The translations under genes and the position numbers were made by a program. 64,000 nucleotides of DNA from an uncultured Candidatus Rokubacteria bacterium (lineage in GTDB: Bacteria > Methylomirabilota > Methylomirabilia > Rokubacteriales > DASRDR01): the NCBI GenBank assembly GCA_963708025.1, contig CAVPSB010000031.1, positions 1-64,000 of the forward strand, written 5' to 3'. Shown here piece by piece: positions 11,214 through 52,678 of the stretch; within the stretch, counting starts at the first letter, position 1; each line of letters begins with the position of its first letter. The notes below the pieces were generated by a model that searched no databases, had not been told where the DNA came from, and saw nothing but the letters and a program-made list of their open reading frames with translations.

Positions 11214-11358
11214 CGTCGGCCTCCTGTGTCGCCTGGTGCACGGCGATGATGGCGGCGGCCATCAGGCGCAGCAGTGCGGCCTGCACCTTCGACGGCAAGG
11301 GCATCGCTGGCGTTGACGCCGCGTGATCCACGCCGAGGTCGAAGTCGATCTGCTTCAC
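11188..11358 (-). CDS. 56-aa accessory ORF of LSR element 1
   Basis: GGAGG + GTG; KQIDFDL...VQAALLRLMAAAI; a similar ORF sits at the same position in element 2. Confidence 0.6.
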   Translation of the reverse strand: MKQIDFDLGVDHAASTPAMPLPSKVQAALLRLMAAAIIAVHQATQEADDDDRGRES

Positions 11359-11693
11359 GTCCACCTCCCGATGTCGGGTGCGCACCCGTTTGGGGGAGGC
11401 TAGCGTCATTCGATGACGAGGACGAGCTGCTCCGGACCCAAGAGTCCTTCACCAGGATGGCGACGGAGCAAAGTGCCCGAGCGCTGATGACCGCCTGCGG
11501 AGCGAGCTGGATGAGTGCGGCTTCGGGTGCCAGCATCCAGGTGGGGATCACCAGCGCCACACCGGTTGGATCGCGAACGGTCACGGCCTCGTCCCGCTGG
11601 CGAGACCGAACACCTGTCAGTTCCTGGCCATGCAACGGATGGAAAGGGTAGTGGACGACTGCGGAACTTATGGTTTCATGACGCCCTCTTGCT
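11210..11693 (-). CDS. Y4bD/DUF5372-like accessory protein body; its start codon is at 9079 across attP
   Basis: VHYPFHPLHGQ...IPTWML motif; frame open to the element end without an ATG. Confidence 0.7.
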
Positions 11694-12347
11694 CAACGTC
11701 CACTTCCACACGCTGGTCCTGGACGGCGTCTTCGCCGAGCTCACGCCGGGCCGGCTCCAGTTCCACGCGGCGCCACCGCCCAGCGATGCGGCTGTGGCCG
11801 AGCTGCTCGCCACGATCCGCGCACCGGGTGGGGCGCTGCTGGCGCGCCGGGGTCTAGAGCCCGCCGCGGCCGAGCCGGGCCCTCCGGACGGGCTCGCCGA
11901 GGTCTCGCCCGTCCTGGCCCGGATCCTCAGCGCCTCGGTTCAGGGACGCGTGGCTCTCGGCCGGCACGCGGGCGCCCGGGTCGGCCGCCTGGGCGAGGCG
12001 CCGACCGAGGCCGCCGGGCGCGCACGCGGGCCGCGCCAGGCCCACCTGGACGGCTTCGATCTGCACGCCAACGTGTGGGTGCCCCCCAACGATCGGGCCC
12101 GGCTGGAGCATCTGTGCCGCTATCTGCTTCGCCCCCGCTGGTGCAGGACCGTCTGCGGCTCCGGGCGGACGGGCGAGTGGCGGTCAAGCTGAAGAGGGCC
12201 TGGCGCGATGGGACGACGCATCTGATCTTCGAGCCGCTCGAGTTCCTCGAGAAGCTGGCGGCGCTGACGCCGCGGCCCGAGGTCAACCTGGTGCTCTACC
12301 ACGGCGTCCTCGCCCCGCGCGGGGCGGTGACATTGTGCAGCCTTTCG

Positions 12348-14435
12348 TCAAATGCCCGGAATCTCGAGCGTCTGGGAATCGGCGACGCGACTTCGTGGGC
12401 GACGCGTCCGCCCCTCCACCGCCTTCGCGGCGGTGCGAATGGCCTCGGTGTCGAGCACCGCAGGATCGAGCTGCCATGGGGCACACGGCACCACCTGGGT
12501 GGCCTCGAGGATGCCGCGCGTGATGAGCCGTCGCAGCACCCACGGACCGACGCCGAGCCGATCGGCCGCTTGGTTCAGCGTGAGCATGGGCGTCGCCCGG
12601 GCCTCGTCATAGTCCACGAGGCGGAGCCGTTTGCGGAGCGACAGGACGCGCGAGGCCGTCCAGGTGTTGCCGGCGCCCGTGCGCAGGCGCAGTCGGTTGA
12701 GGCTGGCGGCGATCTCGTGATCGGGCCACCCGCCCGCCATGCGCCGCACGACGCCTTCGGCATCCGGGCCGGTCCGGTGGCGATGCTCGCCCGGCTTCGG
12801 TCGGGGAATCCGCACCTCGGAGTGTCGGCCGCCCGCCCAGTGGATCACCAGCACGATCTCGCGCGCGGGCTCATCGGCATTGGCGATGATCTCGTGGATC
12901 AGCAGGCGCGCGATGCGTTGCTTGACGCGCATCTCGCTGCTCGGCGCATCCCAGACTCTGCGGAGATCGGTGGCCAGCGATTCGAGGGTGGCTCGATCGA
13001 CGCGTCACGGATCGCCGCCGCGAGCCGTTCCTTGCGCCTGCAGTCGCCCTTCGAGCTCGGCGACCCGTTCGAGCGCGCCGTTCCAGCGCGCTTCGAGCTC
13101 CGCGGCCACCAGACGGTTGTCAGGGTCGACGGCTTCGTAGCGTCTCGCGGCGAGCGCCGCCTGGTAGTGGGCTTGCTCCAGTTCCAGCGCCAGCGCGCGG
13201 TGCTGGTCGTGCGTCGTGCTGCTCGGCGAGGTCGCCCGCCTCGATCGCGGCCTGCAACGCCTGGCCTTGGACCACCGTCAGGATCGCGGCGCTCACCGTC
13301 TCGTCGGGTCGACGGGCGCTAAAGCCGATGCAGCGCGGGGCGGCCTGCGCGCGATTGGCTTGCCGGCATTGGTAGCGCGCGTAGCCCCCGCGCTCATACA
13401 CGACGTGCAGCATGCGTCCGCACCGCCGCGCAGCGCAGCAGTCCGGCCAGCAAGCACCGGCCGCCGCGGCCGGCCTTGCGGGCCGTGGTGCCCTGTCATG
13501 TGCGCGTTCTCCTCGAGCCGCCGCTGGTTGCGCTCGAACTGCTCCCACGAGATATAGCCGGGGTGGTGATCGCGAATCAAGGCCGTCCACTGGGGCATCG
13601 GCTTGTCGTGCCCGTGCGTCCGAGTCGCGCGGCCCTCCACGACGCGGGTCCGCGTCTCCCGCCGGCCGAACGCGTAGGCGCCCGCATAGAACGGACTCCG
13701 CACGATGGACAGCACCATCCGGTAGGTCGCGGGTCGCCAGGTGATCGCCCGCGGTCGTTCGTGCTCGAGCGTGGGGAGCGACAGGTGCTCGTCCCGCAGC
13801 CACATCAGCACCTGGCGGACGCTGCCGAACTCCACGAGCTTGTCGAGCACCATCCGGATCGCCTGCTGCACGCGCCGGTCCGGATGCCGCTCGATGTGGC
13901 CATCCGGGGTCCACCCCAACCCGGCCGGCAGCGTGAACTGGAGCGCGCCGCGCTTGGCTTTCGCGCGAATGGCCTCCTGGGAGCGCTGCCGAAACAGGCT
14001 GAGCTCGTACTCGCTGATGCTGCCCTTCACGCCCAGGATCAGCCGGTCGTCGGGCAGCGACAGATCATAGACCTGATCGAGATCGGCCACCAGGGTGGCG
14101 AGGAGCCCGCAGAGCTCGAACAGCTGGGCCCAGTCCTTCGAGTTGCGCGAGAGGCGCGAGGCTTCGAAGCACAGGATCAGGCCGACGTGCCCCAGGGAGA
14201 CCTCCGTCGACCAGGTGCTGGAAGCCGGCCCGGTGCGCGAAGCCGGCGGCCGAGATGCCGAGGTCGTCCACGATGGTGACGGGCTTCGGCCAGCCGAAGG
14301 CGACCGCCTTGTCGCGCAGGCCGACCTGGATGCGCGTGCTCTCGGCATGGCTGCGCACTTGCTCGGGGCTGGACTGGCGGACGTAGACGATCGCGGTGCG
14401 CTTCAAGTGCTGGGGGTGATCCTATCGGCCCGCAT
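12348..14435 (-). CDS. Large serine recombinase with several frameshifts
   Basis: AIVYVRQSS, EASRLSRN, SPFYAGAY, CGRMLHV, LEARWN, C-terminal HTH LTLNQAADRLGV. Confidence 0.9.
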
Positions 14436-14436
14436 C

Positions 14437-14617
14437 ACGCCCTCCCGTCGGGGTCGTGCGCGCGAGGCGTCGACCGCGGCGCGCAGGAGCAGCTCGGCCA
14501 CGGCGCGGAGCAGCTCCTGGTGCTGGGCCGCGGTCAGCTCGATCCGGAGCACGACGTCGGCGGCGGGGGGGAACAGCGGGATCTGGGTGGGGATCGACCG
14601 AACTCGTTCGTCGCATC
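14437..14617 (-). CDS. Small accessory ORF of LSR element 2 (frameshifted; ends approximate)
   Basis: QIPLFPP...QHQELLRAVAELLLRA, same position as 11188-11358 in element 1. Confidence 0.5.
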
Positions 14618-14929
14618 GCAGCCCTCCTTCGAGGGCATTGACGCACGAGGGGGGTCGGGCGCGCGAGGCGCGACAGCGTCCAGCAGCTCCCGGAGCTCCT
14701 GCAGCGCCGCGATCGACACGACCGGCGCGCCGACGGTCAGGGCCGCGCACGCCGCGGCATCGGTCATCCAGGCGGGCAGGGCGCCCGTCGCCCCGTCAGG
14801 CAGCTCGCAAAACAGTACTTCGCTGGTCACTCTTGTCCAAATTAGCCCGGAAGGCGGATGAGCCCCCTGGGGTATGGTGAGGTCGAGACCGACCAAGGTT
14901 CGACACCACCACGGACAGGAGGCTCACCC

Positions 14930-16093
14930 GTGAGTGGATTCTGCAGCATGTTCAGCCAGCTGCTCAAGCTGTTTCCGCGGACGGAGTTCCAGGCGCTGGT
15001 GACGCGGACGCACGCCGAGCGCCACGCCCGGGGCTTCACGTGCTGGGGGCAGTTCGTCGCCATGCTGTTCTGCCAGCTCGGCCGCGCCCACTCGCTGCGG
15101 GAGATCTGCGGGGGCCTGCGCAGCAGCGAGGGCAAGCTCAAGCACCTGGGCATCACGGCGCCGAACCGCTCGACGCTGGCCTATGCCAACGCCCATCGCC
15201 CGTGGCAGCTCTACCGGGCCGTGTTCGAGGCGCTCCTGGCGCGTTGTCAGCCCCTGGCGCAGGGCCGGCGGAAGTTCCGGTTCAAGAACAAGCTGGTGAG
15301 CCTGGACTCGACGGTGATCGACCTGTGCGCGACGCTCTTCGACTGGGCGAAGTTCCGACGGACGAAGGGGGCGGTCAAGCTCCATTGCCTGCTGGACCAC
15401 GACGGCTACCTGCCCAGCGTGGTGGTCATCACCGAGGGGAAGCGGCATGACGTGCGGGTGGCCCGCACCCTGCGCTTCGACCCCGGGACCATCGTGGTGA
15501 TGGACCGGGGGTACATCGACTACGCCTGGTTCGGGCAGCTGACGGCCCAGGAGGTGTGGTTCGTCACGCGGCTGAAGGACACCGCGGTGTACGAGGTGGT
15601 CGAGACCCGGCGGATCCCGCTCCAGGGCCGGGTGGAGCGGGACGAGGTCATGCGGCTGACCGGGGTGGGCGCCCCGGACAAGTGCCCGCACCCCTTGCGG
15701 CGGATCGAGGTCTACGACCCCGAGAAGGACATGACCCTGGTGTTCCTGACCAACCACCTGACCTTCGGGGCCACGACCATCGCCGCGATCTACAAGGACC
15801 GGTGGCAGATCGAGCTGTTCTTCAAGGCGCTGAAGCAGAACCTGAAGATCAAGACCTTCGTGGGGACCAGCGCCAATGCCCTCAAGGTCCAGGTCTGGAC
15901 GGCGCTGATCGCGATGCTGCTCCTGAAGTACCTCCAACTGCGCTCCCGCTTCGCGTGGTCGCTGTCGAATCTGGTCGCCCTGCTGCGGATGAACCTCTTC
16001 ACCCATCGCGACCTGTGGGCGTGGCTCGATCAGCCGTTCGAGGGCCCGCCCACCGTCCTCACGACCTCGCAGGGGGTCTTGGCCCTTGCCTAA
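14930..16093 (+). CDS. IS4-family DDE transposase (DUF4372-type N-terminus)
   Basis: LDSTVI, MDRGY, YKDRWQIELFFK (YREK motif); RBS AGGAGG. Confidence 0.95.
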   Translation: MSGFCSMFSQLLKLFPRTEFQALVTRTHAERHARGFTCWGQFVAMLFCQLGRAHSLREICGGLRSSEGKLKHLGITAPNRSTLAYANAHRPWQLYRAVFEALLARCQPLAQGRRKFRFKNKLVSLDSTVIDLCATLFDWAKFRRTKGAVKLHCLLDHDGYLPSVVVITEGKRHDVRVARTLRFDPGTIVVMDRGYIDYAWFGQLTAQEVWFVTRLKDTAVYEVVETRRIPLQGRVERDEVMRLTGVGAPDKCPHPLRRIEVYDPEKDMTLVFLTNHLTFGATTIAAIYKDRWQIELFFKALKQNLKIKTFVGTSANALKVQVWTALIAMLLLKYLQLRSRFAWSLSNLVALLRMNLFTHRDLWAWLDQPFEGPPTVLTTSQGVLALA

Positions 16094-16282
16094 TCGGGAC
16101 AGCACGACCCGGCAACCTGATCTCGGCCCCGGCTCCATCTTGTCCAATATCCCAGGAAATCGCGCGATGCACCGGCCGGATCCCGGCTAATTTGATGTCA
16201 TGAGAACGGCCGCGCGGCTCTGGGGGTACGCTCATGGCGAGCGCACCACCATCAAGCCAGACTTCAGAGGAGGGCCGACGTC

Positions 16283-17338
16283 ATGACATTCGTGGGATGC
16301 GACTTGCACACTCGGAATCAACACGTCGCGGTGCTCGACACGGAGACAGGCGAGGTGCAGGAACGTCGCCTCGCCCACGATGACCAGACGGTCGAGCAGT
16401 TCTATCGCTCCCTGCCACGCCCCGTCACGGTCGGGGTCGAGAGCACCGGGTACGCGCAGTGGTTTCATCGCTGATCCAGCGCCAGGGCCATACCTTGCTC
16501 GTCGGCGATGCCGCTCGGATTCGCGCCATGGTCGTGCGCAAGACCAAGACGGACCGGCGCGATGCCGCCCACTTGTTGCAGCTCCTGAGCGAGGATCGGT
16601 TTCCCGGTCATCTGGGTGCCCGATCCCCGCGTGCGCGATTTGCGCGCCCTCGTGACCCACCGCATGCGGCTCGTCCGGATGCGCACCATGGTGAAGAACG
16701 GGTTGCACGCCATCGCCCTGAACCAGCGGCTGGCCGCCGGGAGCGCCTTGTTCACGCGCCGCGGGCGGGCGCAGTTGCAGGCGCTCGCGCTGCCGCCGCA
16801 CACGACCCAGCGGCGCGATGAGAGCCTGGCGCTCCTGACCTGGCTCGACGAGCACATCGAGCCCCTGAACGCGCAGATCGCCGAGGCCGCGGACGCCGAC
16901 GACCAGGCGCGGCGGCTCATGACCCACCCCGGCGTGGGACCGCTGACGGCGCTGGCCACCGTGTTGGTCCTCGGCCCGGTGGCACGGTTTCCGACGAGCA
17001 AGCACGTGGTGAGCTACATCGGATTGGCGCCGGCCGTGGACGCCTCGGCCGAGAAATACCGACTGGGTCATGTCACGAAGCAAGGCAACGCCCTGCTCCG
17101 CTACGTGCTGGGCCAAGCCGGCCAGGTCGCGGCGCGCGCCGATGCCGACCTGCGACGCCTCTACTCGGCGGTGATGCATCGACACGGACGCGCCAAGGCC
17201 AAGGTGGCGGTGGCACGGAAGCTGCTCGTCCGTCTCTACATCATGTTGCGCGACCAGATTGACTACGACGAATTTCGGCGGCGTGGCCGACCCCCGGCAC
17301 CTCACGCGATCGCCGGCGAGGTCGCCGTGCGCACCTGA
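16283..17338 (+). CDS. IS110 DEDD recombinase (frameshifts near 16470 and 16605)
   Basis: FVGCDLH, GVES, KTDRRDA, PGVGP, SYIGLAP..SAEK, KVAVARKL. Confidence 0.9.
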
Positions 17339-17384
17339 CGTCCGGCGCGATGACGCCGGTGGGGCGTCGATCCCCAAGGCGTGA

Positions 17385-17540
17385 GGTCCAGTGCGGGCGT
17401 TCCCGAGCTGTCCATGGTCGTGGTCAGGACCGACAATTTGATTGGGACGCCCACCCTCGACGATCCCGGGATCGTCGACGATCGCACACGACATCATGCG
17501 CCGCGAGTGCGCGAATAGATGGATGGTGGACTCATGCCCT
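17385..17540 (+). ncRNA. Putative bridge/seek RNA of the IS1111-type element (ends approximate)
   Basis: Stem-flanked loops contain gctgtcca/aatttg (target) and gacatc/atagatg (donor). Confidence 0.75.
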
Positions 17541-18101
17541 TCAGGGACCGGACCCTCCCGCGGCGGCGCGCCTCCGCGGAGAAACCACACCGACGCGGCG
17601 TCACAGCCGGGGCGGCCGATCCCGGCTCTCGACGGAGGAGGGTCCACTCGAAGAATCATCTTGACAGACAGACCGTTCTCATAGACGGACAGCAGTGTTC
17701 GCTGGTACTCCGTGGGACCGTGCGCCTGACGCGTGCGATCTGGCCGTACAGCGGGTGCCAGCCGTAGTGAACGGTGACCTGCTTCGCTCTCTCGGTAGAA
17801 TGTAACGGCCTCCCATGCGCGCTGGCGCCCACAGGTCGTGGGCTATGGTCGGGTGGCGCCCGAGGCCGCCGCCCGTGACCCCGCCGAGGCCCGCCCGGTT
17901 CCGCCGCCCCCACGCCGCAACTGGACCTGGGCGGCCCTGATGCGGCGGGCGTTCGCGCTCGACGTGTTGGCGTGCCCGCGCTGCGGCGGGCGGCTGCGCG
18001 TGATCGCCACGGTCGAGGACCCGCTCGCGGTGCGCCAGATCCTCGCCGCCCGGCACTCGGCCGAGACGGTCGGTCCTGGCCCGCCGGCCGGTGCCCCCCT
18101 A

Positions 18102-19445
<1,344 letters not shown>

Positions 19446-20250: not shown

Positions 20251-20320
20251 CCCCCCCTGGGGGCCCCCCACTGGGCGGGGGAGCGCGGGCGGGACGGCCG
20301 AGAATGGGGCATTATGTTGA
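20251..20320 (+). repeat. Isolated IS91-like 3' terminus (putative oriIS); continues as ctagcccc after the IS110
   Basis: ccccccctgggggccccccactgggcggggg...agaatggggcattatgttga. Confidence 0.7.
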
Positions 20321-20429
20321 CTTCTATGAAGCGGCCCCCCGTGTCAAGCGATAGCGGCGTGGGTGGTGTCCCTCTCTTTCGCCGTCCGAGGTCAGCGGTC
20401 CACGGCGATGGGCCCACGGTTCCCGCGAG

Positions 20430-20570
20430 GTTCAGTCATCCTTCTATTCGCGCTCGTCAGGGGCGAGCGGGGCTCGCCGGCGCATGAGGGGAGTCGAAGG
20501 GTGGGGTGCCATCTACGCAACGGCTCTCGGACCGCGGCCAAGTCAACACACGCACTCACCCACCCGTCGA
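20430..20570 (-). ncRNA. Putative bridge/seek RNA of copy A (ends approximate)
   Basis: Guide-like tgttgact (target) and atagaag/tcccct (donor); scaffold catgcgcc...gcgcgaataga shared with 17495-17519. Confidence 0.7.
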
Positions 20571-20751
20571 ACCCGCGCGAGACCAAGGTGCCGCTCATCG
20601 TCCCACGGACGGTGCCTGACTGCTCAGGGTTCGGAGCCTGACTCGGGTGAACCGCGATCGCCCCAGTGGGCCCAGGACGCGTCCGTTGCCCCGGACCGCT
20701 ATCTGGGTATTCCCGAAAACAGCCATTTCCCCGTTCTCCCCGCGCCGGCCC

Positions 20752-21795
20752 TCAGACTGGGACGGCCGCCTTGGCCGCGCGGCGCGACACGGCGCGCGCG
20801 TCATACCTCGTGCCGTCGCGCAGCATCGCGTAGAGGATGCCGGCCAGGCGGCGGGCCAGCGCGACGACCGCGATCTTCTTCCCGCGGCGCGCGGCGATGC
20901 GCGTTGCCCAGCCCCGCAGCGCCTCCGTCTGCAGATGACGACAGCGGAGGATCGACACGGCCGCCTGGACGAGCAACCAGCGCATCCGCGTATTGCCGGC
21001 CTTGGTGATCCGGCCGCGCCGTTGGCTCTTCCCCGAGCTCAACTCCCGGGGGACGAGGCCGAGATACGCCTCCACCTCATGCGCCCGGTGAAAGCGCTGC
21101 GCGTCATCGATCGTGGCCACGAAGGCCGCCGCCGTGACCGGCCCCACGCTGGGGACGGTCCGCAGGCGCTGCACGCGCACATCCGGGCGCGTGACGTGCT
21201 CGATCACCTCGTCCGAGTAGGCGAGTTGCTGATTGACGGGCCGCATCACCGCCAGCAAGGGCGCCACCTCCGAGAGCAGGCGGCCCGGCAGCGGCAGCGC
21301 CACGACGCGCCGGATGAACGTGTCCGCGCTCCCCGTGGGCACACGCCCCCCGTGGCGGCGCAGGAGAGCCCGGATCAGGGCGATGTAGCCGGTGCGCGTC
21401 CGGACCAAGGCATCGCGCACCGCCAAGCGCCCCCGCACATGCCGCTGCGCGTCCGAGAGGCGATGCGCCGGGCGATAGGCCCCCAGCAGGCAGGCCTCGG
21501 CCAGCGCCCGGGCATCCCGCCGATCGGTCTTGACCTTCCGAGTCCGCGAGGCGTACATCGGCGCGAAGTTGGGGTCCGCCACCACGACCTCGTGGCCCAA
21601 GGCCTCGAGGCACCGGGCCACCCATTCACTCTCCGTCGAGGCTTCGACGAGGATCCGGGCTGGTGGCCGGCCGCCCAGCACCTCGGCAAACCGCCCGGGC
21701 TCGGTGCGGATCCGGCATTCGCTCAATTGGCCGCCCTCGCGAAGGATGCAGATCTGGCTTTCCTTCTTGTGCAGGTCGATGCCAACATAGTCCAT
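20752..21795 (-). CDS. IS110 DEDD recombinase, intact
   Basis: YVGIDLH, VEAS, KTDRRDA, YLGLVPRELSSG, VALARRL. Confidence 0.95.
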   Translation of the reverse strand: MDYVGIDLHKKESQICILREGGQLSECRIRTEPGRFAEVLGGRPPARILVEASTESEWVARCLEALGHEVVVADPNFAPMYASRTRKVKTDRRDARALAEACLLGAYRPAHRLSDAQRHVRGRLAVRDALVRTRTGYIALIRALLRRHGGRVPTGSADTFIRRVVALPLPGRLLSEVAPLLAVMRPVNQQLAYSDEVIEHVTRPDVRVQRLRTVPSVGPVTAAAFVATIDDAQRFHRAHEVEAYLGLVPRELSSGKSQRRGRITKAGNTRMRWLLVQAAVSILRCRHLQTEALRGWATRIAARRGKKIAVVALARRLAGILYAMLRDGTRYDARAVSRRAAKAAVPV

Positions 21796-21889
21796 GGCTG
21801 GCCCCCCTCGTGCGCCCGTGAGCGCGTGTTCTCTCAGTGGGGCACTGTGTGCCACCACGTCGAGCTGGGGGTCAGCCGCTTCATCCCAT

Positions 21890-22213
21890 CTAGCCCCGCA
21901 GCCGGCCGTCCGTCCGCCTGGCCGCCCAGACCAGGGCCGCCAGCTCCTGGCGGGTCAGCAGCACGGGCGGCACGCCGGCGCGCGCTTCCGGCGCCAGCCG
22001 GGGCCGGCTCAGCCGGCCCGACTCGCCGCCCTCGATCGGGTAGCCCGCGTCCTCCAGCGCGTGGAGGTCGCGGTAGATCGTCTCGCGGCGGGTCCCGAAG
22101 CGGGCGGCCAGCTCGTAGACGGTGGGGCGCGCACCCTCGGCGAGCAGCTTCAGGATCCCCAGGACCCTGACCACCTGACGGTCCCGCCGAGACGGAGAGG
22201 CGGCCCTCCCCAT
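21890..22213 (-). pseudogene. N-terminal wHTH of a WYL/PafB-type regulator, truncated at the mobile-element junction
   Basis: ELAARFGTRRETIYRDLHALEDAGYPI...LTRQELAAL. Confidence 0.7.
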
Positions 22214-22337
22214 GGCCCGGCATCATAGACCCGACCCTTACGGGCCCGCAAGCTCCGCCCCCGAGGAAGTTGCGCCGGGGGGCATGCGCCGCTATCATCG
22301 TGACCGAATGGGTCCCGATCAGGAATGGAGGTTCACC

Positions 22338-22631
22338 GTGACAACCCCCGCAAGAACGAAGAGGATTCCAGCCCTCGAAGCACGGAGCCAGCTCGGCCGG
22401 ATCATGAAGAAGGTTCAGAGCGGCCAGGTCCGTGTGCTCATCGAGAAGGCCGGGGTTCCCATGGTGGGCATGATCAGCGCCGACGAGTTTCAGCGCCTAG
22501 TCGCCGAGCGAGAGGCCCGGTTCGAAGTCGTCGATCGCGTTAGGCGCCGGCTGCCGAGGGTCTCCGACGCCGAAATTCAGCGGGACGTGCGCGAGGGTCT
22601 GAAGGAGGTCCGCCGCCGCCGACGTGCTTAG
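22338..22631 (+). CDS. Phd/YefM-family antitoxin
   Basis: EARSQLGRIMKKV...VLIEKAGVPMVGMIS; GGAGG+GTG; overlaps the PIN gene. Confidence 0.85.
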   Translation: MTTPARTKRIPALEARSQLGRIMKKVQSGQVRVLIEKAGVPMVGMISADEFQRLVAEREARFEVVDRVRRRLPRVSDAEIQRDVREGLKEVRRRRRA

Positions 22632-23044
22632 GGTGCTGCTGGACACCAACCAGACTGGTCAGCAGCCTCCTGAGCACACGTGGGCCTCAGCGGGCGCTCC
22701 TCGACGCATGGCGCCGCCGCGCTTTCCTGCTGTTCATCACGGCCGAGCAGCTCGAGGAAGTGCGGGAGGTCCTCGGCCGGCCGAAGATCTCGCGAAAGTA
22801 TCGCATCGCGCCTGCGGATCAGCAGGCATTCGTCGAGCTCCTTCGTTCCGAAGCCGTCCTGCTCCCTGACGAGCCGACTCCCGGGGTCTGTCGGGATCCG
22901 GACGACGACCACCTCCTCGGGTGCGCGGCCGCCGGCGCCGTGGAGTACCTCGTCACCGGAGACGCCGACCTCCTGAGCATCGGGCAATTCCGCGGAACGT
23001 CCATCCTCGCCGCCCGGGCCTTTCTGGAACTCCTGCCCGCGTAG
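22624..23044 (+). CDS. PIN-domain toxin (frameshift near 22654)
   Basis: RVLLDTN ... CRDPDDDHLL ... LVTGDADLL. Confidence 0.85.
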
Positions 23045-23189
23045 ACCGGCCCCCAGAGGGCCCGCAAGCGCGGACCCTACCCGCTGCGGCAGCCTGGAGA
23101 AGCGTGAGACACTTGCAGCGCGACAGGTCTGGGGCGGCTGCCCTGGACCTCGCAGGGCAGTCCGTTGGGGAGGACTCGGAGAAGCGGCT

Positions 23190-23822
23190 ATGTTTGGCGA
23201 TGGCGCCCTGGCGTTCAGGGAGTTCGCGACGAAGGAGCGGGTACCCCTGGCGACGATCCAGGCCGCGATCCTGGAGATCCTCCGTTCGAGGCGCGACGCC
23301 GTGCTTTTCGGGGCGCAGGCGGTCAATGCCTATTGCGACGAGCCTCGGATGACGCAGGGCGTGGACATCCTGTCCCCGAATGCCGAAGCGCTGGCCCTGG
23401 AGATTCGGGACCGGCTCGCCAAGCGGTTCCACCTGGCGATCCGAGCTCGCGAGCTCGGGCGCGGCCGCGACTATCGCGTCTTCCAGGTCCGGAAGCCCAG
23501 CAACCGCCACCTCGCCGACGTGCGAAAGGTCGAGGAGCTTCCCCCCGCCCAGCGCATCCGGGGGATTCTCGTCGTGACGGTTCCAGAGCTGATCGCCCGT
23601 AAGCTGCTGGCCTACCGGCGGCGCAAGGGCCAGCCGAAGTCGGGAACCGACTGGCGGGATCTGGCCGTGCTCCTCCTGGCCTTCCTCGCGTTGAAGGCGG
23701 AAACGGGCCCGGTGGCCGACCGCTTGCGCGTCCTGGGAGCGGAGGAGGACGACATGGCCGCCTGGCGCGCTCTCGTCCAGGAGCCCATCCAGGCCGAGCC
23801 GGACGAGGGGGACGAGTCCTGA
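23190..23822 (+). CDS. Nucleotidyltransferase-fold protein (AbiEii-like)
   Basis: FGAQAVNAY..PRMTQGVDI; LIARKL; DWRDL. Confidence 0.65.
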   Translation: MFGDGALAFREFATKERVPLATIQAAILEILRSRRDAVLFGAQAVNAYCDEPRMTQGVDILSPNAEALALEIRDRLAKRFHLAIRARELGRGRDYRVFQVRKPSNRHLADVRKVEELPPAQRIRGILVVTVPELIARKLLAYRRRKGQPKSGTDWRDLAVLLLAFLALKAETGPVADRLRVLGAEEDDMAAWRALVQEPIQAEPDEGDES

Positions 23823-24317
23823 GCGTCCGCACCACGCAACGCGAGACGAGTCGGGTGTCCTCAGCTCAGCGCCGGTAGGTTCCCTCGTCCCTCCGCCGCA
23901 CGGTCTCGATGATCACCTCGTCTCGCTCGAGATCGAGCGAGACGGCGGAGTCTCACCGGGCGCGGGCCTTCTTGAGCCGGGCGAGGCGGGCCTCGATCTC
24001 GCGACCTAGCAGGGGCTCGGTCGGCTCGCGGCGTCGCGCGCGCACCAGCGCATGATCCGGGTCTCCAGGCCGGACCGGTTCGGCCCGTGACACCTCGAAG
24101 AAGCTCTTCAGGGCGCGGTCCAGCAGCTCGCGCGCCGCCTCCGCCCGCGAGGGCTTGCGGGTCGCCAATCCTTCCCCCTTTCTCGGAGATCGCATCTCTG
24201 ACAGCCGCATGTTACAGCGATACGACCGGAGTCGGTAGCTTGCCGGGCTGAACTGTGCGCCTGGATGCCACAGCCCGGGCCTACTCTGGGTGCCGCCACA
24301 CACCAGAGGAGGTCAAC

Positions 24318-24662
24318 ATGCTCGTCCGCCTGAGACGCGCGACCCGGACCGCGCGGGACACGTTCCGCGTGACCCTCGACCTGAACGACCCCGACCACCC
24401 CGACTGGGAGACCGGCGACTGCGTGGTCCGCCTCGATGTGCTGGACGCGCCGAAGCACGAGGCCGTGCCGCGCGGGCCCCTGGCTGCGGCGCTGGAGCTC
24501 TACCGCCTGTCGCGCGACGAGCGCCCGGCGGCCGCGGACGCCCGGCTCCTCTGGGACATGGGGCAGGCGGTGGACGCCTACGTGACCCGGCTCTTCGAGT
24601 CGGGCGTCCTCTGCCCCTTCTCGGACCGGCCGAAGGACGAGGCTCCCGACCGCTCGCCCTGA
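24318..24662 (+). CDS. Hypothetical protein
   Basis: RBS AGGAGGT before ATG; GC3-rich codons. Confidence 0.7.
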   Translation: MLVRLRRATRTARDTFRVTLDLNDPDHPDWETGDCVVRLDVLDAPKHEAVPRGPLAAALELYRLSRDERPAAADARLLWDMGQAVDAYVTRLFESGVLCPFSDRPKDEAPDRSP

Positions 24663-24857
24663 CCGCCGGGCGGTGGCTCCCTGTCAAGGCATTCGAGAGG
24701 GTCGCCCGTGGGTGATTCGTCCCGGGCGGGTCGTCAGGCATTACCTAACGACCCGTCCGGGACGGCGAGACCCCGTGGGGAGGTGTGTCAGTCCGTCTCC
24801 GGTCATCGCCGGCCGGCCAGGGCTCGCAGCTCCGCCGGCTCGACGCATGGCGCGGGC

Positions 24858-25187
24858 CTACGCCTGGTCGAAGAGCTTCAGCGCAAGGGCGCCGTGGGTG
24901 GCGGCGGCGCCGGCGCGCAGGGCGGCCGCCAGCAGCGCGGCCTCGATGACCTCCTCGCGGATCGCGCCCGCCTTCTTGGCGGCCCTGGCGTGCACGTCGA
25001 GGCAGTACGGGCACTGGGTGGTGCAGGCGACGGCCAGCGCGATCAGCTCGCGATACTTCCGCGGGATCTTGCCGTCGTCGCGCCCGACGATGCTGTCCAG
25101 CTCGACGAAGCCCTTGAACTCCACGGGGGCCAGCTTCTTGAACTCCCCGAAGGCCTTCAGATCCTCTGAGTCGTGATAGTGGCTCAT
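24858..25187 (-). CDS. Carboxymuconolactone decarboxylase/AhpD-family protein
   Basis: RELIALAVACTTQCPYCLDVH. Confidence 0.9.
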   Translation of the reverse strand: MSHYHDSEDLKAFGEFKKLAPVEFKGFVELDSIVGRDDGKIPRKYRELIALAVACTTQCPYCLDVHARAAKKAGAIREEVIEAALLAAALRAGAAATHGALALKLFDQA

Positions 25188-25250
25188 GGTGCTCTCCTTC
25201 CTTCCGTGAGATGTGACGGTCGTTGCCATCCGCGCATCGCTTGCCCCCGG

Positions 25251-26114
25251 TCAACGCCGGGTGATGACCACCTCGACATAGGCGCCGGGAACCACCAGCC
25301 CCGCGGGGCCGCCGCGGTCGAAGCGATCGAGCAACGCGAGCAGGTCGGCCTCGAGCGCGAGCTGCCTCGGCGGATCGAGGGCGAGGAACGCCTTGTGCAC
25401 CGGGCCGTAGAAGGCCCGGAACACCTCGACCCAGTGGGCGGCCGACCGGTAGCGGAACACGAACTCTCGTGGCACGATCCGGATGTCCGCCGCCTCGGCG
25501 CCGAACAGCTCGCGCAGGCGGGCCTCCGTTCCCCACGCGGCCGGCGGCCGGAGCCCGGCGGGCGGCGGGACATGCGCGCCGACGACGCGGAAGAGCTCGC
25601 CGATGAAACCCTCCGGCGTCCAGTTGGCCAGTGCGATGCGGCCACCGCGCCGGCACACGCGGGTAATCTCGCGCGCCGCGCGCTCCTGGTCGGGAGCGAA
25701 CATGACGCCGTAGGTGGAGAGCACGACGTCGAACGACCCGTCGGGGAACGGCAGCTCATCGGCGTCGGCCTCGCGGAAGACGACGAGCAGACCCTCCGCC
25801 ACCGCGCGCACGCGGCCGTGCTCGAGCAGCGCGGGCACGAAGTCGGTGGCGGTGACGTCGGCGAAGCGGCGCGCCGCGGCGATGGCCGCGTTGCCGGTGC
25901 CCGTGGCCACGTCGAGGACCTTCTCGCCGGCGCGGAGGTCGGCGGTCTCGCAGAGCGATTCGGCGACGATCTGAATCGTCCGGGCGACGACGGCGAAGTC
26001 GCCCGATGCCCACGTCGCCTGCTGGCGGGTCCTAATCGCGGCCAGGTCCGGCGGGCATGCGGTGGGCAGCGCGGTGCGGTGGCCGCTCGGTGCGGGATTT
26101 GCGATGGGGCTCAT
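25251..26114 (-). CDS. Class I SAM-dependent methyltransferase
   Basis: VLDVATGTGN, ADADELPFPDGSFDVV. Confidence 0.9.
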   Translation of the reverse strand: MSPIANPAPSGHRTALPTACPPDLAAIRTRQQATWASGDFAVVARTIQIVAESLCETADLRAGEKVLDVATGTGNAAIAAARRFADVTATDFVPALLEHGRVRAVAEGLLVVFREADADELPFPDGSFDVVLSTYGVMFAPDQERAAREITRVCRRGGRIALANWTPEGFIGELFRVVGAHVPPPAGLRPPAAWGTEARLRELFGAEAADIRIVPREFVFRYRSAAHWVEVFRAFYGPVHKAFLALDPPRQLALEADLLALLDRFDRGGPAGLVVPGAYVEVVITRR

Positions 26115-26334
26115 GGTCCGTCTACCTCCTCAATTCGAGTCGGCGCTCGGCGCCGGGTTGCGCTAACATCGTCAGCGGCGCGTGCCGCGCCGGTGTCGAT
26201 GAAGTCAACGTACCGGCGAGACGCGGCGAGGTAAATGACCGGCCGTCCGCCGTTCTTGCCAGGACGTCCGGATGGAGCGAGGCAGGTGCCCGGGCGTCCG
26301 GGCCGCTTGTCCGAGCGTCCGGACGAGAGGACCG

Positions 26335-27303
26335 ATGAGCGCCGATCCGCTGTCCGACGTGTTGCGCGTGGTGCGGCTCGACGGCGCGTTCTTCTACGCG
26401 GTGGAGGCCAGCGAGCCCTGGAGCGTGGAGGCCGTCGCGGCGAGGGACCTCACGCCGCGCATCCTCCCCGGCGCCGAGCACCTGATCTCCTACCACATCC
26501 TCACCGCGGGCCGCTGCTGGGGCGGATTGATCGGCGAGCCGCCGGTGGCGCTCGGCCCGGGCGACGTGATCGTGTTCCCCCACGGCGACGCGCACCTGAT
26601 GTCGAGCGCGCCGGGAGTGCGGGCCGGGGAAGCCCTGTACGGCGCGACGCCGGCCCGCTATCCCGAGACGGTGACGCTCGGCGAGGGTGGGCGGGTCGCG
26701 GCCGTGCTCGTCTGCGGGTTCCTGGGCTGCGATCGGCGCCCGTTCAACCCGTTGCTCTCGACGCTGCCCCGGCAGCTGCATTTGCCCGGGCTCTCCAGCG
26801 GCTGGCTCATGTCGTTCGCGCAGCAGGTGGTGGAGGAGTCGCGGGCGCAGCGGGCGGGCGCCGACTCCGTGCTGACGCGGCTCGCCGAGCTGATGTTCGT
26901 GGAGGTGATACGTCGCTACATCGAGACGCTGCCCCCCGAGCGGCGGGGCTGGCTCGCGGGCCTGCGCGACGACGTCGTCGGCCGCGCGCTGGGCCTGCTG
27001 CACGGCGCGCCCGCGCGCCCGTGGACCATCGACGAGCTCGCGAGGGACGTGGCCCTGTCCCGCTCGGCGTTCGCCGAGCGCTTCACCGCCCTCGTCGGCC
27101 AGCCGCCGATGCAGTACCTCGCCCAGTGGCGCATGCAGCTCGCGGCGGGGCACCTGGCCCGCGGCAACGCCAAGGTGGCCTCGATCGCCGAGGAAGTCGG
27201 ATACGAGTCGGAGGCCGCCTTCAGCCGGGCGTTCAAACGCCTGGTGGGCGTGCCGCCCGCGGCCTGGCGACGGGCGCGCGAGGGCTACGGCGGAACGGCG
27301 TAG
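26335..27303 (+). CDS. AraC-family regulator with cupin domain
   Basis: DPLSDVL; WTIDELAR..LSRSAFAERF; VGYESEAAFSRAFKR. Confidence 0.9.
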   Translation: MSADPLSDVLRVVRLDGAFFYAVEASEPWSVEAVAARDLTPRILPGAEHLISYHILTAGRCWGGLIGEPPVALGPGDVIVFPHGDAHLMSSAPGVRAGEALYGATPARYPETVTLGEGGRVAAVLVCGFLGCDRRPFNPLLSTLPRQLHLPGLSSGWLMSFAQQVVEESRAQRAGADSVLTRLAELMFVEVIRRYIETLPPERRGWLAGLRDDVVGRALGLLHGAPARPWTIDELARDVALSRSAFAERFTALVGQPPMQYLAQWRMQLAAGHLARGNAKVASIAEEVGYESEAAFSRAFKRLVGVPPAAWRRAREGYGGTA

Positions 27304-27481
27304 TCGACGGCGCCTGCCCGCCGATCTGACCGGGCGACTTGGCCGGCTCCCCACCCGTCTCGCCGCCGAGGATTTCGCGAACCAGCTCCTGTTCGCCTGA
27401 CCGGTGACCGCCGCGCGCCACTCGCGACGCGCGGAGAGATCGTCTATCCTCGCGGCAGATTCGAGGGTCAGGAGGACCAGC

Positions 27482-28279
27482 ATGACGATCGATCCGCTCG
27501 CCCAGGCCAGAGTCGATGCCGCCTTCATGCCCGACCAGCGCAGCGAGCTCGTGCCGAGTCCGCGCTGGGTGCGGGGGAAGCTCGGGCACGTGACGGTCGC
27601 CGACAGCAAGCGCGTGATGCTGCTGCGCGAGACCGGCCGGCTGCCGGTCTACTACTTCCCGGAGGCGGACGTCCGCACCGACCTGCTCACGCCCAGCGGG
27701 CAGGCCGTCCAGCATCCGCGCTTCGGCGAGGCGTCGTTCTTCGATCTCGCCGCGGGCGGCAAGGCCGCGGCGCAGGCGGCCTGGACGTACAGGGACGTCC
27801 CGCCGGAGGCCCCCGGCTTGAAGGGCTACGTCGCCTTCGAGTGGAACAAGCTGGACGCCTGGTTCGAGGAGGACGACGAGGTCTTCGTCCACGCGCGCGA
27901 CCCGTACAAGCGGATCGACGTCTGCCACGGCTCGCGCCACGTCCGGGTCGTGATCGGCGGCGAGACGGTGGCCGACACGCGCCGCCCGCGCCTCCTGTTC
28001 GAGACCGGGCTGCCCACCCGGTACTACATCCCGAAGGCCGACGTGCGCATGGACCTGCTGGAGCCGAGCGACACCCACACGCGCTGCCCCTACAAGGGCG
28101 TCGCCTCCTACTACTCGGTGAAGGTCGGGGACGCGCGCTTCCCGGACCTCGTCTGGTACTACCCGACCCCGATCCCGGAGTGCCCGAAGATCGAGGACCT
28201 GGTCTGCTTCTTCAACGAGAAGGTGGACATCCACGTGGACGGCGTCCTGGAGCCGCGGCCGGTCACGCGCTGGTCGTGA
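27482..28279 (+). CDS. Tandem DUF427 protein
   Basis: Two repeats with ETG..P.YY.P..DV; CPYKGVASY. Confidence 0.9.
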   Translation: MTIDPLAQARVDAAFMPDQRSELVPSPRWVRGKLGHVTVADSKRVMLLRETGRLPVYYFPEADVRTDLLTPSGQAVQHPRFGEASFFDLAAGGKAAAQAAWTYRDVPPEAPGLKGYVAFEWNKLDAWFEEDDEVFVHARDPYKRIDVCHGSRHVRVVIGGETVADTRRPRLLFETGLPTRYYIPKADVRMDLLEPSDTHTRCPYKGVASYYSVKVGDARFPDLVWYYPTPIPECPKIEDLVCFFNEKVDIHVDGVLEPRPVTRWS

Positions 28280-28291
28280 AGCCGGCCGGTT

Positions 28292-28612
28292 CTAGCCGAG
28301 GATCGCGTGCTCCTCGGTGATCAGGACCAGGCGGTCGCTGACGGTGGCCTTCGAGTGGCCCACCGCCGTCAGCCCGGCCTCGGACGACCAGGCCGCCTCG
28401 AGCGCGGCGCGGCTGTCGAACCATAGCTCGGCGAGCCCGTCCCAGGGCTCGCGGCCCTCGTGGGTGGTCTAGCCGGTGACGAGGCAGACCCGGTACTTCC
28501 GCAGGCCGGCGAGGCCCGTCACCAGGGGCACGTGCTCCTCCAGCCACCAGCGGTGGAAGCGCTCGCGGCTCCAGCCCTCGGGACGTCACAGCAGCGAGAC
28601 CACCTTGATCAT
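28292..28612 (-). pseudogene. EthD-family protein with two in-frame stops
   Basis: MIKVVSLL*RPEGWSRERFHRWWLEEHVPL...DGLAELWFDS. Confidence 0.75.
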
Positions 28613-28628
28613 CGGCGCCTCCCTCGGG

Positions 28629-29210
28629 TCACTTGGGCAGGGGGTAGCCGAACAGGAGGTGGGGGAGCATCAGCGGGATGGAGGGGAAGACCGCCATGAT
28701 CGCCAGGTCGATCATCATGATGATGATGAACGGGATGGTGGCCCGCACCGCGGCCTCGTAGCGCACCCCGGCGAGCTGGGTCGAGACGAAGAGGTTCAGC
28801 GCGACGGGCGGGACGATGCAGCCCAGGCCCATGTTGGTGCAGAACAGCACCCCCCAGTGGACGGGGTCCACGCCGGCCCGGGCCAGGAGCGGCATGAACG
28901 TCGGCAGGAAGCCGAAGATCATGGCCGGGGGCTCCAGGATCATCCCCAGCACGACGAACACGAAGCTGACCAGGAAGATCACCACGTAGCGGTCGGTGCT
29001 GACCCGCGTGACGAGATCCACCACCTGCTGAGACACCAGGTCGCGCGCCATCACGAAGCCGAGGAACGACGAGGTGGCGGCCATGAACAGGGTCATCCCG
29101 CTGATGTACCCCGCCTCCACCACCGACTGGTAGAGTCGCCGCGGCTGGGCCGTCCGGTAGCAGAACGAAAGCACGAGCACGTAGGCGAGGAGCACGGAGC
29201 CGCCGAGGAT
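28629..29210 (-). pseudogene. TRAP transporter large permease (DctM-like), C-terminal part only
   Basis: GVDPVHWGVLF..NMGLGCIVPPVALNLFV; cut by the repeat at 29212. Confidence 0.85.
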
Positions 29211-29211
29211 G

Positions 29212-29279
29212 CCCCCCCTGGGGCCCCCCACTGGGCGGGGGAGCGCGGGCGGGACGGCCGAGAATGGGGCATATGTTGA
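29212..29279 (+). repeat. Isolated IS91-like 3' terminus (putative oriIS)
   Basis: Near-identical to 20251-20320. Confidence 0.7.
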
Positions 29280-30806
29280 CTTCTATGAAGCGGCCCCCCG
29301 TGTCAAGCGAGAGCTGCGTGTGTGGTGTCCCTCTCTTCCTCTCCTCCGTCCGAGGTCAGCGGTCCACGGCGATGGACCCACGGTTCCCGCGAGGTTCAGT
29401 CATCCTTCTATTCGCGCTCGTCAGGGACGAGCGGGGCTCGCCGGCGCATGAGGGGAGTCGAAGGGTGGGGGTGCCATCTACGCAACGGCTCTCGAACTGC
29501 GGCCAAGTCAACACACGCACTCACCCACCCGTCGAACCCGCGCGAGACCAGGGTGCCGCTCATCGTGACACGGACGGTGCCCGACTGCTCAGGGGTCGGC
29601 GCCTCACTCGGATGACCTGGGTATTCCCGAAATCGGCCATGGTCGCGTTCGCGACGCGCCGCCTCTCAGACCGGGACGGCCGCCGCGGTGGCCTTGCGCG
29701 GCACGGCCCGCGGCTCATACGCCGTGCCGTCGCGCAGCATCGCGTAGAGGAGGCCCGCCAGACGGCGGGCCAGCGCGACGACGGCAATCTTCTTGCCGCG
29801 GCGCGCCGCGATGCCCGTGGCCCAACGCCGCAGGGCGGCCGTGCGGGGATCGCGCAGGCGCAGGATCGACACGGCCGCCTGGACGAGCAACCAGCGCATC
29901 CGGGTATTGCCCGCCTTGGTGATCCGGCCGCGCCGTTGGCTCTCCCCCGAGCTCAGCTCCCTCGGGACGAGGCCGAGATACGCCTCCACCTCATGTGCCC
30001 GGCGAAAGCGCTGCGCGTCATCGATCGTGGCCACGAAGGCCGCCGCCGTGACCGGCCCCACGCTGGGGACGGTCTGCAGGCGCTGCACGCGCGTATCCGG
30101 GCGCGTGACGTGCTCGATCACCGCGTCCGAGTAGGCGAGCTGCTGATTGACGAGCCGCATCACCGCCAGCAAGGGCGCCACCTCCGAGAGCAGGCGGCCC
30201 GGCAGCGACAGCGCCATCACCCGCCGACTGAGAGTCTCCGCACTCCCCGTGGGCACGCGCCAGCCGTGCCGGGCGCAGCAACGCCCGGGTCAGGGCGATG
30301 TATCCGGTGCGCGTCCGGACCACGGCATCGCGCACCGCCAAGCGGCCCCGGACATGCCGCTGCGCGTCGGACAGCCGATGGGCGGGGCGATACGCGCCGA
30401 GCAGACAGGCCTCCTGTAGCGCCCGGGCATCCCGCCGATCGGTCTTGACCTTCCGGGTCCGCGTGGCATACATCGGCGCGAAGTTCGGGTCCGCCACCAC
30501 GACCTCGTGGCCCAAGGCCTCGAGGCACCGGGCCACCCATTCACTCTCCGTCGAGGCTTCGACGAGGATCCGGGCTCGCGGCCGGCCGCCCAACACCGCC
30601 GCGAACCGCTCGCGCTCGGTGCGGATGCGGCATTCGATCACCTCGCCCGCCTCGGTGAGCAGACAGATCTGGCTTTCCTTCTTGTGCAGATCGATGCCAA
30701 CATACTCCATGGCTGGCCCCCCTCGTGCGCCCGTGAGCGCGTGTTCTCTCAGTGGGGCAGTGTATGCCACCACGTCGAGCTGGGGGTCAGCCGCTTCATC
30801 CCATCT
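29280..30806 (-). mobile_element. IS110/IS1111-type element, copy B; recombinase 30710-29666 with a frameshift near 30270
   Basis: Same IRs, CT core and guide segments as copy A; similar but not identical protein. Confidence 0.9.
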
Positions 30807-31360
30807 AGCCCCCGTCCTTCGTCGCCAAGGACGACGCGCCCGCCGATCCCCTGCGCGAGCGCCTCCTGACCCTCGTCCGCCGCGCCCCGGCTTCGCTCTC
30901 GACCGCCACGCTCCGACAGACCCTCGGCGTCCGCAAGCAGGTGCTCGTTGACCTCTTGCGCACCCTGGTCGCCGAGGGTCGCCTCGGCCGCGCCGGACGC
31001 GAAGGCTGGACGGCGGCGCCCCCGGCGGTTCCGGTTCCTCCTCCTATAGGTGGGAACGGGAACGCAGACGCCGCGCCCTCATCTCACTGAAGCCCAGCTC
31101 GGGTACGTCGCTGCAGGGGAACGCGAGCGGCTACAGCCAGGCATCGGCTTCTCGCCACGCTCTCACTCGGCCACGCGGCCGGGGCGTTCCGCTTCGAGCC
31201 GCGGCTTGCCGCGGCCTTCTCCGGGGGGGGGGGGAATCCGGGGGTGTTCCGACACCCCCCCGATGATCTCGGAGCGTGACGTAATCGGGAGCCTCCGGCT
31301 CCCCCTCCCCCAGTGGGTGGGGGAGGGGGGCAGGGGGGGTGGAGGGAGGTCCCGATGTTC

Positions 31361-45081: not shown

Positions 45082-45130
45082 ATGACGGCGTGGACGATCC
45101 TCGTGATGGCGAGCCTGTGCGAGGTGGTGT
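45082..45130 (+). pseudogene. SMR/SugE-like N-terminal fragment
   Basis: GAGGAGG + MTAWTILVMASLCEVV (W..L....E pattern); only 16 codons. Confidence 0.5.
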
Positions 45131-45292
45131 CGACGTGCTGGCGTGCCCTCGCTGTGGCGGGCGGCTGCGCGTGATCGCCACGGTCGAGGACCCGCTCGCG
45201 GTACGCCAGATCCTCGCCGCCCGGCGTCCGGCCGAGACGCTCAGGCCTGGCCGCCGGCCCCGGCCGGGGCCCCGCCATCGCACCTGACCTCC
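45131..45292 (+). pseudogene. IS91-like transposase 3' fragment
   Basis: DVLACPRCGGRLRVIATVEDPLAVRQILAAR, matches 17961-18053. Confidence 0.9.
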
Positions 45293-52371: not shown

Positions 52372-52557
52372 CGTACCGGCGCCCGCATGCCGGCCGCGGC
52401 GGGCGCTGCCCGTTGCCGTCTCTCCCGCCAAGTGTCGCAGCCAGGTGCCACGACCTTGACACCGCCCGCGCCGGTCGCGCAGCATCGGAGCGGAGGGGGC
52501 TTTGTCCGCCAGCCCCCCTGGGGGGACGGCCGAGAATGGGCCTTCATGTCGCCTAGC
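52372..52557 (+). repeat. IS91-like 3' end remnant, unoccupied variant
   Basis: Matches 18195-18333; ends agaatgggccttcatgtcgcctagc. Confidence 0.75.
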
Positions 52558-52678
52558 CTCACCTCAGGAAGAAGTTCGGGGCGATCTACCGGGGCGAGCG
52601 GAGGCGGATTGTCCCGGCGGCAGGCGGGAATGGACGGCGCGGCCGGTCGAGCCGGTCGAAGCGCCAGGGAGGTCGATC

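Follow-up and report, generated by a model that had tools for sequence, protein, structure and literature searches.

The window analysed here covers positions 1-64,000 of contig C31 from an 8.17-Mb assembly (G000; 49 contigs) of an uncultured Candidatus Rokubacteria bacterium. It carries two related insertion sequences (IS) of the IS110 family in the same orientation (Table 1), and both interrupt a near-identical 76-bp sequence at the same CT dinucleotide. On the plus strand, the junctions of both copies read ...GGGGCAT(T)ATGTTGA-CT-TCTATGAAGCGGCC ... GCCGCTTCATCCCAT-CT-AGCCCC, with CT pairs flanking copy 1 at 20321-20322 and 21890-21891 and copy 2 at 29280-29281 and 30805-30806. Direct reading of these junctions bears out an earlier sequence-only reading of this DNA, which had placed both copies at ...atgttga-CT-agcccc. 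We consider it highly probable that the copies are RNA-guided elements of the IS1111 group that target the 3' terminus of an IS91-like transposon.

Table 1. Features of the window (positions without prefix) and of other contigs of the assembly (prefix C).
Feature	Position	Strand	Remarks
IS1111-type IS110-family element, copy 1	20323-21891	-	1569 bp including one CT core; second CT at 20321-20322; intact
Copy 1 transposase open reading frame (DEDD_Tnp_IS110 + Transposase_20)	20755-21858	-	368-aa open frame
Subterminal inverted repeat ATGAAGCGGC	20326-20335	+	Right end in transposase orientation; 3-bp extension outward
Subterminal inverted repeat GCCGCTTCAT	21875-21884	+	Left end in transposase orientation; 7-bp extension outward, including core
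Conserved bridge/seek RNA region (predicted)	20418-20581	-	Non-coding stretch downstream of transposase
5' target loop GUGUGUUGA-CU (predicted)	20541-20551	-	Complementary to target top strand (IS orientation); covaries with right flank
3' target loop UUGCGU-AG-AUG (predicted)	20510-20520	-	Covaries with left flank in relatives; 2/6 positions at both occupied sites
Putative donor loop 3' strand AAUAGAAGG	20440-20448	-	Equals right IS end + core
IS copy 2	29282-30806	-	1525 bp, defective
Copy 2 transposase, split	30021-30773 and 29669-30256	-	Frameshift at residue 167/168
Copy 2 RNA region	29382-29546	-	
Terminus copy, left 70 bp of 76-bp solo copy	20251-20320	+	Starts at C-run/G-run palindrome
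AGCCCC, last 6 bp of terminus right of copy 1 core	21892-21897	+	
Second terminus fragment	29211-29279	+	Abuts truncated DctM gene (28632-29231, -)
AGCCCC, last 6 bp of terminus beyond copy 2	30807-30812	+	
Earlier pieces of the same IS91-like transposase	8524-12317	+	8524-9102, residues 1-193; 11641-12317, residues 160-389
IS91-like transposase C-terminal piece + 3' region	17799-18371	+	Transposase 17799-18098; TTGAC promoter-like box, hairpin, C/G palindrome; cut off at 18371
Solo IS91-like 3' end, unoccupied	52451-52561	+	Variant site ATGTCGC-CT-AGCCTC
Third, distant IS1111-type element	16193-17685	+	Inserted 10 bp from end of IS4-like element
Third element guides	17407-17414 and 17435-17440		
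IS fragment, internal	C18:42183-42921		
IS fragment, right-end/RNA	C14:5840-6093		First loop GUGUGUCAA-CG (core changed); second loop unaltered
IS fragment, left end	C48:2339-2412		77 bp; flank CT-ACCCTCC
Examples of ~55-bp solo ends	C16:412738-412794; C13:342756-342807; C13:341497-341551; C25:136674-136725; C2:239612-239664		

The copy 1 transposase contains the DEDD RuvC-like N-terminal domain (PF01548, E=5e-15) and the C-terminal domain (PF02371, E=1e-25) of the family. Because the alignment of relatives begins only at residue 17-20, translation likely starts at the ATG at 21797, giving a protein of ~347 aa. Copy 2 has a split transposase frame and has lost ~44 bases of its non-coding region. 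The copies are 90.4% identical, patchily along their length, and copy 1 is 91.1% identical to L002, which lies in another genome (L-numbers denote loci of related IS110 transposases in other genomes, 79 in all). By copy 1 transposase, the closest relatives are found in metagenome-assembled genomes (MAGs) of Rokubacteria/Methylomirabilota.

The subterminal inverted repeats (sTIRs) of copy 1 form a perfect 10-bp pair (12-16 bp in relatives). In transposase orientation, the left extension is AGATGGG and contains the core; the right one is AGA. Some 430 bp of non-coding sequence (20323-20751) lie downstream of the transposase, versus ~90 bp upstream. A single target motif, a fixed orientation and CT as the sole duplication are common to the two window copies and 11 of the 15 close relatives. 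Members of the IS1111 group are described as having sTIRs of usually 11-13 bp (range 7-17 bp), extensions of 7 bp on the left and 3 bp on the right, and a non-coding region downstream of the transposase gene (PMC11187229). Every tested defining feature of the group was present, which places both elements in it by sequence: copy 1 is an intact member and copy 2 a decayed relative.

The sequence-only reading had allowed that a 70-bp repeat might travel with the IS110 element, and this is not so. The sTIRs with their 7- and 3-bp extensions mark the IS ends, the similarity to relatives stops there, and the repeat is present without an IS at 27 other places in the genome; the boundaries therefore indicate that the 76-bp repeat is not part of the IS110 element. 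Similarity to L003 spans query positions 69-1640, and the IS plus both cores occupies 70-1640; with L001 and L002, as these occupy targets of this same kind, it extends by a few more bases. A 23-mer from the left flank occurs exactly twice and once with three mismatches (52522-52544), versus no occurrence in shuffled sequence. The right flank could be read in 15 close relatives, and 11 of them are inserted at ...ATGTxxx-CT-A... in the same orientation; L001 and L014 are inserted at CT-ACGC.

The claim that the repeat follows an IS91-like transposase is borne out by three lines of evidence. Firstly, of 17 loci of this genome, four have the C-terminus of such a transposase (...RVIATVEDPLAVRQILAA...) 135-180 bp upstream of the repeat; one of the four is at 18260 in the window, where the last 50 bp of a cut-off terminus (18322-18371) are the same as 20251-20300. 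A tblastn search with a full-length relative recovered this transposase from the window in three pieces (8524-9102, 11641-12317 and 17799-18098; residues 1-193, 160-389 and 385-484), with the Y2_Tnp domain (PF04986) located by Pfam at 12132-12314. The inserted DNA between the pieces includes an IS4-like element (transposase 14858-16090), which itself carries a third IS110 element, and a gene for a serine recombinase on the minus strand (13296-14348). Secondly, contig C3 of the sister genome G001 has a 616-aa open frame with a whole Y2_Tnp domain, followed by a TTGAxA box, a hairpin, a C-run/G-run palindrome and GAGAA...ATGTCTC-CT, and the IS110 relative L001 occupies that CT. A sister copy (G001:C12; 85% identity over 1580 bp) has the uninterrupted end ...ATGTCGA-CT-ATCAGC. 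Thirdly, a Y2_Tnp domain adjoins L001 and L019, the latter in a Pyxidicoccus genome, and the C-terminal peptide lies beside L001, L004, L019 and L076 (4 of the 79 loci). These comparisons identify the repeat as the transposase-distal 3' end of an IS91-like element. The CT core would lie 6-8 bp inside this end, since the terminus copies of the genome diverge ~8 bp past the CT, at CTA(C/G)CC(C/T)C. In the Pyxidicoccus genome (G003), the IS91-like copies diverge ~100 bp past the stop codon, and no uninterrupted sister site could be aligned.

The motif could instead be an independent small palindromic repeat, similar to a repetitive extragenic palindromic (REP) sequence or a miniature inverted-repeat transposable element (MITE), that IS91-like elements merely adjoin. 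Most of the 29 copies are indeed short and solo, at least nine start at the C-run/G-run palindrome, copies contain palindromes such as GGCCATGGCC, and IS1111-family members that target REP sequences are known, for example ISPa11 and ISPpu9 (PMC11187229, PMC12288879). However, the motif stands at a constant distance after the IS91-like transposase and is continuous with the box and hairpin (four loci here and both G001 copies), the two G001 copies are alike through the motif, and in L004 and L019 transposase and target have diverged together. Moreover, the 4-bp targets that IS91-family elements pick (PMC13181058) would not give them a fixed 60-bp neighbour. We regard an independent repeat as quite improbable and retain the IS91-like terminus. 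A promoter, leader or start codon of cellular genes was also considered for the motif and dropped: its ATG opens short or out-of-frame reading frames at several loci, and IS91-like C-termini lie upstream.

Several further features of these ends were observed. An outward TTGACA-type box, a hairpin and GAGAA..GGG followed by ATG recur at 18275-18330, 52465-52520, L080:4250-4330 and on the minus strand of L081 (reverse-complement bases 3530-3600); the box at 52.5 kb faces an SBP_bac_5/ABC-transporter operon, an arrangement reminiscent of the outward-facing promoters at the oriIS of ISCR1. At least nine solo ends of ~55 bp start exactly at the C-run/G-run palindrome and end CTAxCCC. They resemble a discrete mini unit, which could be the product of rolling-circle runs halted at the palindrome or a MITE-like derivative. 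One IS91-like end (C25:409952-410010) has a tandem repeat of the terminal ATGTCGCCTACCCCC motif. In the window, the stretch 8524-18371 is a graveyard of mobile elements with nested insertions. Immediately beyond it, the segment 18369-19334 holds a fragment of a second, divergent IS91-like transposase (residues 123-198, 46% identity) and then a truncated MIP/aquaporin gene (18815-19334, minus strand), and the 50-bp repeat 18322-18371/20251-20300 brackets a 1.9-kb segment. Another remnant, 35 residues from the C-terminal part of an IS91-like transposase (86% identity), lies at 45129-45233, with no terminus motif detected after it.

The non-coding region downstream of the transposase is highly conserved in 16 sequences save two short blocks. 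RNAalifold, applied to these sequences, predicts a stem that encloses two 11-nt loops with a hairpin between them, and after it a second internal loop; the variable blocks are the two 11-nt strands of the internal loop around the small hairpin. Reverse-complemented, the core and right target flank give the first block; the second reproduces the left target flank followed by the core and the initial bases of the IS. This order, with the top-strand match 5' of the bottom-strand match, is that reported for IS1111 seekRNAs (PMC11187229). A search of 10000-60000 against Rfam (E up to 1) returned only two chance-level matches, and no family matched the RNA or the repeat.

Covariation of the blocks with the targets was assessed in 50 elements, comprising 48 loci (L012 added by hand) and both window copies; sTIR repeats were detectable in 53 of the 79 loci, and loci without 12 flank bases on each side were left out. 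The first block had at least six contiguous matches to its own right flank in 27 of the 50 elements, compared with 59 of 2450 mismatched element-target pairs. For the second block, at least four matches plus the core to the own left flank were found in 32/50 elements, compared with 324/2450 mismatched pairs. Very different first blocks fit their own flanks exactly, as in L003 (CAATCGTTC-CT) and L004 (GGACTTC-CT). The 3' strand of the putative donor loop, AUAGA-AG, likewise follows variants of the right IS end, reading AUACAAG in L009 and L011 (right end ACA) and AUAAAAG in L004 (AAA); in the third element of the window it reads AUAGA-UG, in step with a TG core. This covariation indicates that the region encodes a bridge/seek RNA whose loops vary together with the target. 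The RNA words named in the sequence-only reading lie at their minus-strand places (tgttgact, 20548-20541; gcgtag, 20518-20513; atagaag, 20447-20441; tcccct, 20492-20487), tgttgact matching the target exactly and gcgtag in part, as it had said. Its proposal that guides have been naturally reprogrammed agrees with the differing loops and matching targets among relatives. The C14 fragment in Table 1 has probably decayed rather than been retargeted.

Other branches of the transposase family have conserved targets of their own. One group (L021, L030, L033, L037, L049, L052-L054, L057, L058, L066, L078), mostly from Gemmatimonadota MAGs, is found at ...CTAACG...GCGCTT-AG/AA-GCTGCGG; a second (L025, L031, L032, L035, L041, L043, L045, L075), from Acidobacteriota MAGs (mostly Pyrinomonadaceae), has the AT-rich target ...AAGG-AA.... 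No public run contained as much as half of the sequence words sampled. Contigs from four public runs (~90-430 bases) yielded related variants and no circle junction, empty-site join or usable RNA ends. Contigs from RNA libraries overlap the RNA region, and their origin may be DNA or other organisms. One contig family (X2) has a second-loop variant that would read CT-ACCC, which we note as a lead only.

The sequence-only reading had proposed a genome-wide census of the terminus, scoring occupancy against guide match. Run with a profile of the last 60 bp (E up to 1), it returned 29 terminus-like sites, 24 of them with a CT core as parsed. Thirteen combined the core with at least six contiguous matches to the first guide; two of these were occupied and 11 empty, and none of the 11 other CT-core sites (fewer than six contiguous matches) was occupied. 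Match to the guide does not account for which sites are occupied. With so few occupied sites, and with better-matched sites empty, the census is too small a test, and it neither supports nor refutes guide control of occupancy. The unoccupied variant end of the window had been read as a sign of such control. That end is unoccupied, at 52546-52557 rather than 52540-52557, but with 11 of the 13 matched sites empty, and six of them better matched than the occupied ones, its vacancy loses this meaning.

Several observations weigh against an RNA-guided element that homes on IS91-like ends. The 11 empty sites fit the first guide as well as or better than the occupied sites; six match eight bases, beyond the occupied ones, and the empty site C13:341497-341551 carries the identical TGTTGACTAGCCCC. 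The second guide expects CT-ACGCAA, and the occupied sites, with AGCCCC, match it at two of six positions; among TGTTGACT sites of this genome none has ACGC after the core. The donor 5' strand (UCCCCU) does not follow variants of the left IS end. The corresponding word tcccct, the second donor guide of the sequence-only reading, thus stands apart from the first, atagaag: it is in the expected loop strand and does not covary across the alignment of 16 sequences. As to the terminus, we found no intact IS91-like transposase in this genome, only three partial Y2_Tnp hits, and most targets, here and elsewhere, are solo, with no IS91-like transposase nearby; Pfam scans of the flanks of 21 loci (47 of 93 flank reading frames) found one at two loci. 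By guide match, the positions taken by the window copies are sub-optimal. A possible parallel is the tolerance of IS621 for one or two mismatches at off-target sites (PMC11208160).

The shared target of the two window copies could reflect two insertions or one. We favour two separate insertions. The other possibility is a single insertion, after which the IS together with its flanking 70 bp and 6 bp was duplicated as one unit, for instance by recombination or by one-ended rolling-circle transposition of a mini IS91-like unit; such one-ended transposition is known for IS91 (PMC13181058). The common insertion point would then have been inherited. Consistent with this, both flanks are a rare terminus variant (a 29-35-bp insert plus AGCCCC) otherwise seen only at 18322-18371, both begin at the same C-run, and the sequences beyond them are unrelated and rearranged on both sides. 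The common C-run start is, however, shared by at least nine other solo ends and is no mark of common descent. Moreover, the two ISs, at 90.4% identity, are no closer to each other than copy 1 is to L002, whereas their 68 aligned flank bases show no substitution and two 1-bp indels, an outcome with a chance of ~0.001 at 10% divergence. The RNA regions of the copies are 97-98% alike, and constraint could mimic low divergence in the flanks as well. The C48 fragment, whose flank is a different terminus variant, represents a third insertion. On balance a single insertion appears unlikely.

The third IS110 element of the window is a distant relative. Its transposase is 30% identical to that of copy 1 and has an in-frame stop near 16470; the RNA layout is as in copy 1. 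The blocks GCUGUC-CA and AAUU-UG match exactly the uninterrupted IS4-like ends at C34:216684-216900 and C19:76390-76600. These sister ends read GGCTAATT-TG-GACAGCAGTG, so that the target core is TG; the right-hand core of the element in the window is CG, not TG. The sequence-only reading had described an IS4-targeting element sharing the RNA scaffold with different guides. The similar layout and the differing guides are confirmed, and the transposase is only 30% identical.

Which end of the IS91-like element is targeted bears on the effect of insertion. In IS91, IS801, IS1294 and ISCR1, the origin end (oriIS) is the right end, downstream of the transposase, and has subterminal palindromes; ISCR1 has outward promoters in this region (PMC13181058, PMC6218425). 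Copies formed by one-ended transposition share a constant origin end (PMC13181058, PMC6218425). The end studied here has the same placement relative to the transposase. It carries two subterminal palindromes together with a promoter-like box that faces outward, and it stays constant among copies that vary at their opposite end. From its position downstream of the transposase, we presume that the targeted terminus is oriIS. It might instead be the opposite end, terIS, or have no role in rolling-circle transposition, in keeping with the lack of a nick site, of a conserved adjoining tetranucleotide and of a demonstrated likeness to published oriIS sequences. No common 4-mer followed CTA(C/G)CC(C/T)C at the listed sites, a weak negative as the element end is not fixed to the base. 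Compared with the oriIS regions of ISCR1 and IS91 (PMC6218425, PMC13181058), position and palindromes are shared; an adjacent target tetranucleotide was not seen here, and all transposases of this genome are broken. Given the agreement with known oriIS ends in position, palindromes and constancy, we think a terIS or inert end rather unlikely.

For the presumed oriIS target, the following mechanism can be proposed. The target-binding part of the RNA would be the internal loop, with the 5' strand GUGUGUUGA-CU reading one side of the target and the CT core, and the 3' strand UUGCGU-AG-AUG reading the other side. The preferred target would be (A/G)TGT(T/C)Gx-CT-A(C/T)GC, set 6-8 bp in from the outer edge of the IS91-like terminus distal to the transposase. 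By homology with ISEc11 and IS621, transposition may proceed through a circular intermediate and RNA-guided strand exchange. The two window copies inserted with one orientation and at one and the same CT in two solo termini that are nearly identical; their fit to the first guide is exact and to the second only partial. If the terminus is oriIS, insertion could disable it: a copy placed 6-8 bp inside the end would part the presumed nick site from the palindromes and silence the host element. Alternatively, the IS may ride mini-end units that the transposase still moves.

The closest precedent in habit is provided by IS4321/IS5075, IS1111-type elements whose insertions always lie at the same site and in the same orientation, a few bases in from the ends of another transposon, Tn21. 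In contrast, the host element here is an IS91-like rolling-circle transposon that lacks inverted repeats, insertion is into its transposase-distal, presumed origin end, and the bacteria are uncultured Rokubacteria/Methylomirabilota. The seekRNA elements ISEc11, ISPa11, ISKpn4 and ISPst6 (PMC11187229) are alike in their downstream non-coding region, 7- and 3-bp extensions and matches overlapping at the core; their targets are REP or attC sites, and the targets described here are known from sequence alone. The bridge RNA of IS621 (PMC11208160, PMC11208158) also has target and donor loops and a shared dinucleotide core, CT in both cases, whereas it is encoded in the left end, upstream of the recombinase, with the guide order reversed. 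Among the papers listed in a literature search, judged by title and the opening of the abstract, none treats IS91 ends as an IS1111 target. The terms 'IS91' and 'ISCR' are absent from the text of PMC11187229, though its supplementary target tables could hold such a target, and the matches to 'IS91' in 10.1101/2025.10.25.684509 are to IS911. As far as this search shows, IS91-like ends are a new target class for a known kind of RNA-guided element.

We also raise, tentatively and as doubtful, the possibility that an IS1111 lineage is a specialised parasite of IS91-like transposons, its guide loops co-diverging with the origin-side terminus across Methylomirabilota and Myxococcota and its insertion silencing the host or riding mini-end units. 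In the same window a distant relative appears to do likewise to an IS4-like end, and homing on the ends of other transposons may be a recurrent lifestyle. The elements provide a natural series of reprogrammed loops and matching targets, with 50 pairs, several of them exact and including a pair that differs at most positions, a resource for working out how IS1111-type bridge/seek RNAs pair with their targets. IS91-like (presumed oriIS) and IS4-like ends join the short list of transposon ends that are homed on, in what appears to be transposon-on-transposon parasitism in an uncultured soil phylum. Should the targeted end prove to be oriIS, the fixed insertion point would show, to within a few bases, where the functional terminus lies in an IS91-like family about which little is known.

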